Shown: piece by piece, positions 3,202 to 3,437 of the stretch
Layout of the letters: each line of letters starts with the position of its first letter
How positions within the stretch are numbered: position 1 is the stretch's first letter
NCBI RefSeq assembly: GCF_051903065.1
Contig: NZ_CP178438.1
Direction: 5' to 3' (one strand)
Source: Escherichia coli
GTDB lineage: Bacteria; Pseudomonadota; Gammaproteobacteria; Enterobacterales; Enterobacteriaceae
Length of the DNA stretch: 64,000 nucleotides
Notes under the pieces: generated by a model
Seen by the model: only the letters and a program-made list of their open reading frames with translations
What the model was told of the DNA's origin: nothing
The model's database searches: none
Position numbers and translations under genes: made by a program

Positions 3202-3300
3202 ATGACAGCCCTTCTACGAGTGATTAGCCTGGTCGTGATTAGCGTGGTGGTGATTATTATCCCACCGTGCGGGGCTGCACTTGGACGAGGAAAGGCTTAG
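3202..3300 (+). CDS. ilvL: ilvGMEDA leader peptide
   Basis: 32-codon ORF MTALLRVISLVVISVVVIIIPPCGAALGRGKA, rich in Ile/Val/Leu, directly upstream of a terminator hairpin. Confidence 0.9.
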   Translation: MTALLRVISLVVISVVVIIIPPCGAALGRGKA

Positions 3301-3321
3301 AGATCAAGCCTTAACGAACTA

Positions 3322-3356
3322 AGACCCCCGCACCGAAAGGTCCGGGGGTTTTTTTT
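3322..3356 (+). terminator. ilv attenuator (rho-independent terminator)
   Basis: GC hairpin agacccccg...cgggggt followed by T8 immediately after ilvL. Confidence 0.8.
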
Positions 3357-3386
3357 GACCTTAAAAACATAACCGAGGAGCAGACA

Positions 3387-3437
3387 ATGAATAACAGCAC
3401 AAAATTCTGTTTCTCAAGTTTCAGGACGGGGAACTAA
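3387..3437 (+). CDS. ilvX: small protein IlvX (16 aa)
   Basis: ATG...[22 protein letters not shown] between attenuator and ilvG; identity recalled, expression not verifiable here. Confidence 0.45.

Follow-up and report, generated by a model that had tools for sequence, protein, structure and literature searches.

Since 1980 the ilv attenuator has served as a textbook case of multivalent attenuation, and the small gene ilvX has been annotated since 2008. In a stretch of 64,000 nucleotides (hereafter the window) that originates, ilv region included, from the E. coli chromosome, a first reading of the sequence, referred to here as the original prediction, had recognized an ilv leader, an attenuator and ilvX immediately ahead of ilvG. 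The locus raises two questions. The first is whether the hairpin and run of T residues behind the leader peptide form part of an amino-acid-responsive choice between RNA structures or act as a plain terminator. The second is why a reading frame of 16 codons is found between that terminator and the first enzyme gene, and whether it is kept there for its peptide, for its position or for the DNA and RNA elements that it contains.

The ilv leader region and its leader peptide

Over 2880-3500 the sequence matches E. coli NZ_CP083585.1 (strain ECNB21-M121) with 100% identity, and this region is contained in 5425 of the 5426 complete E. coli genomes; over its first 50 kb the window is colinear with NZ_CP083585.1 and 99.96% identical to it. 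On this identical DNA, RefSeq places ilvL ('ilv operon leader peptide'), ilvX and ilvG at the same positions as found here, flanked by yifB and by ilvM-E-D-A. Three features establish the identity of the locus:

3202-3300, + strand: ilvL leader ORF, 32 codons followed by TAG (3298-3300), product MTALLRVISLVVISVVVIIIPPCGAALGRGKA
3440-5086, + strand: ilvG, acetolactate synthase II large subunit, 548 aa, intact, matching NF006524 with 1076.5 bits (cut-off 738)
3131-3420, + strand: match to Rfam RF02744 (Rev39_5p_UTR), 154.9 bits (gathering 88), E ~1e-48, model positions 1-300 of 300

The IlvL peptide matches Pfam PF08046 over residues 1-32 of 32 with 61.5 bits (cut-off 25) and the NCBIfam equivalog NF007744 with 81.9 bits (cut-off 59), and both ilvM and ilvG match their own equivalog models. 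The Rfam match spans the promoter-proximal 5' UTR, ilvL, the attenuator and the beginning of ilvX. The RF02744 consensus shares with this locus the Val/Ile codons of the leader, the GUGCGGGG segment, the terminator and an ilvX-like start; it differs in being labelled only as a 5' UTR from transcriptomes of Pectobacterium (soft-rot Enterobacteriaceae), with a consensus structure of a single conformation and the attenuator unnamed. RF02744 is evidently the ilvL leader-attenuator, together with the start of ilvX, under a descriptive name. Nothing in our data speaks against the identification made in the original prediction, which the annotation of identical DNA and the two leader-peptide models bear out, and we conclude that the locus is almost certainly the ilvLXGMEDA leader-attenuator of E. 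coli, a ribosome-mediated device that senses Ile, Val and Leu jointly. The ilvL gene, the attenuator and the annotated small gene ilvX are long known and ordinary here.

The original prediction had also proposed a comparison with the characterized ilvGMEDA attenuator of K-12, and this comparison was equally favourable. Positions 3151-3418 are identical, base for base, to those of a K-12-like genome, and leader peptide, helices, T8 tract, position of ilvX and 2-nt gap ahead of ilvG are all alike. Differences from the K-12-like genome lie in the AT-rich promoter region upstream of 3151, with 11 substitutions, and in ilvX and ilvG, with one substitution each. The ilvX substitution changes codon 11 from AGA (Arg) in K-12 to AGT (Ser) here, leaving 15 of the 16 IlvX residues identical; E. 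albertii has Ile at this position. Furthermore, ilvG is frameshifted in K-12 and intact in the window, so that this strain would be expected, from its sequence, to make a valine-resistant acetolactate synthase II. A consensus promoter scan found no promoter on the + strand.

The leader had been described as 32 codons dense in Ile, Val and Leu, which is what we found at 3202-3300: these residues account for 15 of the 32 codons (six Val, five Ile and four Leu), and they include the run VVVIII. The regulatory codons extend from Leu4-5 through Ile20, and 14 of the 15 Ile/Leu/Val codons come no later than codon 20. When the comparison set was formed by all 360 ORFs of 20-60 aa that start with ATG, in any of the six frames of the window, the Ile/Leu/Val fraction of ilvL was matched by only two of them, ilvL included, and a run of at least six such residues was present in ilvL alone (binomial P ~3e-4). 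This rarity therefore shows that the composition of ilvL is no chance pattern. Both small frames had been called sub-threshold for ORF tracks, and indeed ilvL is listed only at a setting of 20 aa and ilvX falls below the minimum of the tool. Very small functional elements can thus be recognized from raw sequence with base-level accuracy. These features agree with published reviews, in which ilvGMEDA follows a leader peptide of 32 aa, 15 of them branched-chain, and in which Ile, Val and Leu all attenuate the operon (PMC6123439, PMC8406616, PMC1183508). Translation of ilvL is additionally repressed by the GcvB sRNA.

Predicted competing helices of the leader RNA and the modelled position of the ribosome

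For structural analysis the leader RNA was taken as 3172-3357, on the assumption of a leader of ~185 nt. Its predicted folding energy is -69.4 kcal/mol, compared to -49.7 +/- 4.1 for shuffled sequences (z = -4.8), and none of 200 shuffles folded as well. Four elements were recognized:

3242-3270, + strand: protector hairpin (region 1:2), 3242-3254 paired with 3259-3270, present in the minimum-energy fold of the full leader
3267-3333, + strand: antiterminator (region 2:3), GUGCGGGG at 3267-3274 paired with CCCCGCAC at 3326-3333
3292-3312, + strand: middle hairpin AAGGCUU/AAGCCUU, -6.5 kcal/mol, spanning the ilvL stop codon
3321-3356, + strand: intrinsic terminator (attenuator), hairpin 3321-3352 with T8 tract 3349-3356, -21.1 kcal/mol

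The protector has an energy of -14.1 kcal/mol, or -24.5 when an outer stem (3208-3212:3271-3275) is included. The whole antiterminator element, enclosing the middle hairpin, which is common to both conformations, reaches -27.4 kcal/mol; its core duplex alone has -17.7 kcal/mol, a value that 56 of 2000 dinucleotide-shuffled leaders attain. The terminator starts 21 nt past the ilvL stop, ends 84 nt ahead of ilvG, and is built on the core CCCCCG/CGGGGG (3325-3330 with 3343-3348) with an inner ACC/GGU closing around a GAAA loop; it is the GC hairpin with eight T residues that the original prediction had described. The antiterminator pairing 3267-3274:3326-3333 overlaps both the terminator arm (3324-3334) and the protector (3259-3270), and from this pairwise sharing of bases the protector, the antiterminator and the terminator are predicted to be mutually exclusive. 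Structure prediction over 3202-3356 had been named beforehand as the analysis on which the attenuator claim should stand or fall, and with three mutually exclusive helices predicted there the claim stands. A consensus terminator scan did not report the attenuator on the + strand, probably because of an internal C-C mismatch in the stem, and the folding tools show the hairpin clearly. Sub-threshold Rfam matches to His_leader, Thr_leader, PyrR and others were rejected as terminator-driven and at chance level, the His and Thr leader models scoring 15.9 and 14.5 bits (cut-offs 49 and 55).

The conservation of these helices was studied in loci collected from species-representative genomes with a degenerate pattern over 3237-3267, which yielded 120 Enterobacterales loci in a search that fixes much of that interval, part of the protector included, and so pre-selects conserved leaders. 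They range from Escherichia, Salmonella, Citrobacter, Enterobacter and Klebsiella through Serratia, Pantoea, Erwinia and Rahnella, and also include Pectobacterium, Dickeya, Brenneria and Edwardsiella. A near-identical leader peptide is encoded at all 120 loci. Among the 105 distinct sequences, 99.8% of protector cells are paired and 11 of its 12 pairs are invariant, in a stretch partly fixed by the pattern; for the antiterminator and terminator cores 99.9% of cells are paired. The helix cores are invariant even at synonymous positions of ilvL codons and outside the search pattern. Since these key cores never vary, covariation speaks neither for nor against them. Compensatory changes were observed in three of the seven pairs of the middle hairpin, and a few in the outer pairs of the terminator. 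In laboratory evolution of K-12, recurrent adaptive mutations have been found in the ilvL/ilvX intergenic region at +47/-39 and +48/-39 (PMC4166923); sites +47 and +48 map here to 3347 and 3348, two G residues of the terminator 3' arm.

When the whole leader was folded at equilibrium with a ribosome placed at each codon, the terminator was always obtained (P of at least 0.98), and this analysis was rejected as a test of attenuation; in this modelling the switch would be visible only in a kinetic, co-transcriptional framing. We consequently considered a transcript ending at 3338, before the terminator 3' arm. A version of this model that allowed pairing across the ribosome behaved erratically at codons 12-16 and was replaced by one in which all RNA 5' of the leading edge of the ribosome is masked. 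With the masked model, the predicted probability of the antiterminator core is ~0.98 when the A site is at codons 1-18, declines through codon 19 and is 0 from codon 20 on, the codon at which the regulatory series ends. The antiterminator is also favoured in the 3338 transcript without any ribosome, and termination in the absence of translation would then have to rest on the protector forming first. These modelled ribosome positions fit the established attenuation model, the kinetic steps of which we infer.

According to that model, transcription would start a few tens of bases 5' of ilvL, and a ribosome would translate the leader as RNA polymerase proceeds. With ample charged tRNAs, the ribosome would get past codon 20 and would cover, or have just released, GUGCGGGG (3267-3274), which would re-pair with 3242-3254 in the protector behind the ribosome; CCCCGCAC (3326-3333) would remain available for pairing with 3339-3349 in the terminator hairpin, and the polymerase would release the ~185-nt leader RNA at the T8 tract. 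When Ile, Val or Leu is scarce, the ribosome would stall in the Leu/Val/Ile codons 4-18 and occupy the 5' strand of the protector, so that 3267-3274 would stay exposed and would pair with 3326-3333 as soon as these bases are synthesized. The resulting antiterminator would block the terminator, and transcription would continue into ilvX-ilvG-M-E-D-A. An increase of readthrough under limiting cognate charged tRNAs has been reported for E. coli K-12 (PMC6123439, PMC8406616, PMC1183508), the sequence of which is identical here.

In the trp, his, leu, thr, pheA and ivbL-ilvBN attenuators, too, a short leader ORF is enriched in cognate codons, antiterminator and terminator are alternative pairings, and the first structural gene is preceded by an intrinsic terminator (PMC1183508, PMC6123439). 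The ilv leader shows the same hallmarks of ribosome-mediated attenuation, namely a cognate-rich leader ORF, an intrinsic terminator and, as predicted by the model, a ribosome-dependent choice between antiterminator and protector. It differs from those systems in being multivalent, three amino acids being sensed (PMC8406616), and in having an extra translated mini-ORF, ilvX, between the terminator and the first enzyme gene. That the hairpin and T8 tract instead end a short upstream transcript constitutively, irrespective of amino-acid supply, is hardly credible: equilibrium folding of the full transcript does predict the terminator every time, but just 3' of the regulatory codons ilvL carries an 8-bp G+C-rich complement to the terminator 5' arm, of an energy seldom reached by shuffles and invariant in the 105 sequences, the leader is exceptionally rich in Ile, Leu and Val, a co-oriented biosynthetic operon lies directly downstream and has no other evident promoter, and attenuation at this locus, with regulated readthrough in K-12, is established in the literature.

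The ilvX mini-ORF and the start of ilvG

Beyond the terminator, the spacer before ilvG contains the following elements:

3375-3380, + strand: Shine-Dalgarno sequence GAGGAG of ilvX, 6 nt upstream of its ATG
3387-3437, + strand: ilvX, 16 codons followed by TAA (3435-3437), 'peptide IlvX' (WP_101962173.1) in RefSeq on the identical DNA of NZ_CP083585.1
3395-3409, no strand assigned: conserved dyad CAGCACAAAATTCTG, a candidate Lrp-binding site by consensus match, in ilvX codons 3-8

The stop codon of ilvX is separated from the ilvG ATG (3440) by the two nucleotides CT at 3438-3439, in agreement with the 16-codon frame ending 2 nt before ilvG that had been predicted, and the ilvG ribosome-binding site (GGGGAA) sits within ilvX codons 14-16. 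In the literature consulted here, ilvX is described only as a small peptide gene ahead of ilvG (PMC9299463), and that article credits detection of the IlvX peptide to Hemm et al. 2008 and 2010.

An in-register ilvX of 16 codons is present in 101 of the 114 Enterobacterales loci that reach ilvG, starting with ATG in 91 and with GTG in 10, and in nearly every case 2 nt separate its stop from the ilvG ATG. An apparent loss of ilvX in Salmonella and in the Citrobacter freundii group was rejected, as their ilvX now starts with GTG in place of ATG; Pluralibacter, Edwardsiella and one Cedecea are without an in-register start codon. Bases G22, G23 and C26 of the Shine-Dalgarno region are nearly invariant among 108 orthologues. 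The ilvX frame is without internal stops in 96 of 97 distinct sequences, compared to 28 and 15 for the other two frames, and shuffling of alignment columns gave 85.6 +/- 2.6 stop-free sequences in this frame, with a maximum of 94 in 1000 shuffles. Since this avoidance of stops exceeds that in every one of the shuffles, the ilvX frame must be kept open by selection, and the maintenance of start codon, 16-codon length and 2-nt gap in the 101 loci indicates that its translation matters.

The peptide itself is loosely constrained and poorly conserved at most positions. Entropies for the first, second and third positions of ilvX codons 2-16 are 0.61, 0.95 and 0.86, without any excess at the third position. 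Conservation of the residues S-I/T-K-F-C is at the level of nucleotides, AGC AUA AAA UUC UGU: the Lys codon is AAA in 75 of 84 sequences and the Phe codon is TTC, with not a single TTT among the 84. Furthermore, the conserved Gly codon near the C terminus (in the xGx codons) coincides with the ilvG ribosome-binding site. An open frame in fixed register, drifting amino acids and best-conserved bases that resemble an Lrp site together suggest that ilvX may act in ilvG translation or in Lrp control rather than through its peptide. On these comparisons, ilvX would be a truly translated, conserved mini-ORF in which selection keeps the position rather than the product, and the most likely consequence would be translational coupling, ribosomes that end ilvX being handed on to ilvG. 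The original prediction had counted leader, attenuator and ilvX alike as functional regulatory elements; this holds for the first two, and for ilvX the comparative data establish an open ORF in fixed register with ilvG, not a role.

The best-conserved bases of ilvX form the block CAGCAyAAAATTCTG (3395-3409). We compared it with the E. coli Lrp consensus yAGhAwATTwTdCTr, as quoted in PMC5554404, and AGAATwwwATTCT was also considered. In the window the dyad has two mismatches to the former consensus, on the - strand, and 66 of 108 orthologues have at most one; 3395-3409 is the only 15-mer frame of the spacer with a low mean mismatch (1.4, compared to at least 4.3 in every other frame). The block is kept in Edwardsiella and Pluralibacter despite the loss of the ilvX start codon. 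Sites with up to three mismatches are common in the window (96 found, 70 expected), and only two other window sites have one mismatch or none. From its sequence, the dyad is hypothesized to be an Lrp operator. Lrp-DNA interactions in the ilvGMEDA leader region were reportedly studied by footprinting by Rhee et al. in 1996. Repression of ilvGMEDA by Lrp is documented (PMC6123439, PMC8406616), and binding of Lrp in the leader region of this operon is likewise known.

A possible 10-bp hairpin, 3375-3384:3406-3415, would join the ilvX Shine-Dalgarno sequence to ilvX codons 7-10. In the 108 sequences, 86.5% of its cells are paired compared to ~50% in slid controls; compensatory changes are scarce, and the ilvX region folds with an ordinary energy (z = -0.47). 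A second hairpin, over the ilvG ribosome-binding site (3417-3422:3430-3435), was rejected: it is unconserved, with 46.6% of cells paired.

Several accounts of ilvX have to be weighed. One holds that its conservation is that of cis elements: 3395-3409 would be an Lrp operator, the ribosome-binding site of ilvG would be a second such element, and a hairpin hiding the ilvX ribosome-binding site would perhaps be a third. It also holds that the ORF serves to be translated through, with a functionless product. We regard this as a serious contender, if one with well under an even chance. It is consistent with the flat third-position entropy and the conservation of S-I/T-K-F-C as nucleotides, with the survival of the dyad block where the start codon is lost, with the close consensus matches among orthologues, with the known repression by Lrp and the published Lrp-DNA study of the leader region, with the pairing excess of helix 3375-3384:3406-3415, and with the overlap of the C-terminal xGx codons and the ilvG ribosome-binding site. 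However, it does not explain readily that the ORF is actively held open relative to the other frames, or that ATG or GTG start, length and 2-nt gap are retained across the loci; moreover, Lrp-like sites with up to three mismatches are frequent in the window, and the candidate hairpin has few compensatory changes and an ordinary energy.

A bolder account, less likely than not, is that ilvX is a conserved translated mini-ORF and not primarily a peptide gene. Through termination-reinitiation it would load ribosomes on the ilvG start, which is weak, and its codons 3-8 would have an Lrp operator embedded in them, possibly together with a hairpin that masks the ribosome-binding site of ilvX itself. 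If ilvX does act as such a ribosome-loading mini-ORF, the acetolactate synthase II gene would have a second, post-attenuator control point across Enterobacterales. It is very improbable that ilvX is no gene, only a reading frame present by chance in the attenuator-ilvG spacer: its mere 16 codons, its poorly conserved peptide and the few genera without an in-register start would be in favour of chance, but a strong GAGGAG stands 6 nt before its ATG, the frame is in register from Escherichia to Pectobacterium, Serratia, Pantoea and Rahnella, Salmonella and the Citrobacter freundii group retained it while exchanging ATG for GTG, stop avoidance exceeds all column shuffles, and the gene is annotated in RefSeq with a peptide detected, according to PMC9299463, by Hemm et al.

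Other features of the window

Several features outside the ilv region were recorded. On the - strand, 47041-51145 holds a block of four genes between cyaY and lptM, encoding a 141-aa protein without Pfam match, two proteins of 431 and 502 aa with weak matches to DKNYY (PF13644), and a 184-aa DUF3304 protein; three of the four are 'hypothetical' in RefSeq. This block is, we assume, absent from the K-12 gene order. A PADLOC search gave no match on the block, and found nothing in the side observations of the window.

An intact ORF for a PemK/MazF-family toxin (PF02452, 42.7 bits) is located at 12853-13344 on the - strand, between ppiC and rep, with no adjacent antitoxin annotated; the K-12 counterpart of this position is presumably the yifN pseudogene. 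Within hemX, at ~40730-40840, there is a short tandem repeat that reads (QV)n in one frame, and this repeat accounts for the sole length difference, of 12 bp, from the closest genome, NZ_CP083585.1. Finally, Rfam matches at gathering level identify the TrxA 5' UTR thermometer (18533-18632), a cluster of four tRNAs (35217-35650; Arg-His-Leu-Pro according to RefSeq) and the GlmZ sRNA (39283-39489), all of which are expected for this region of the chromosome.
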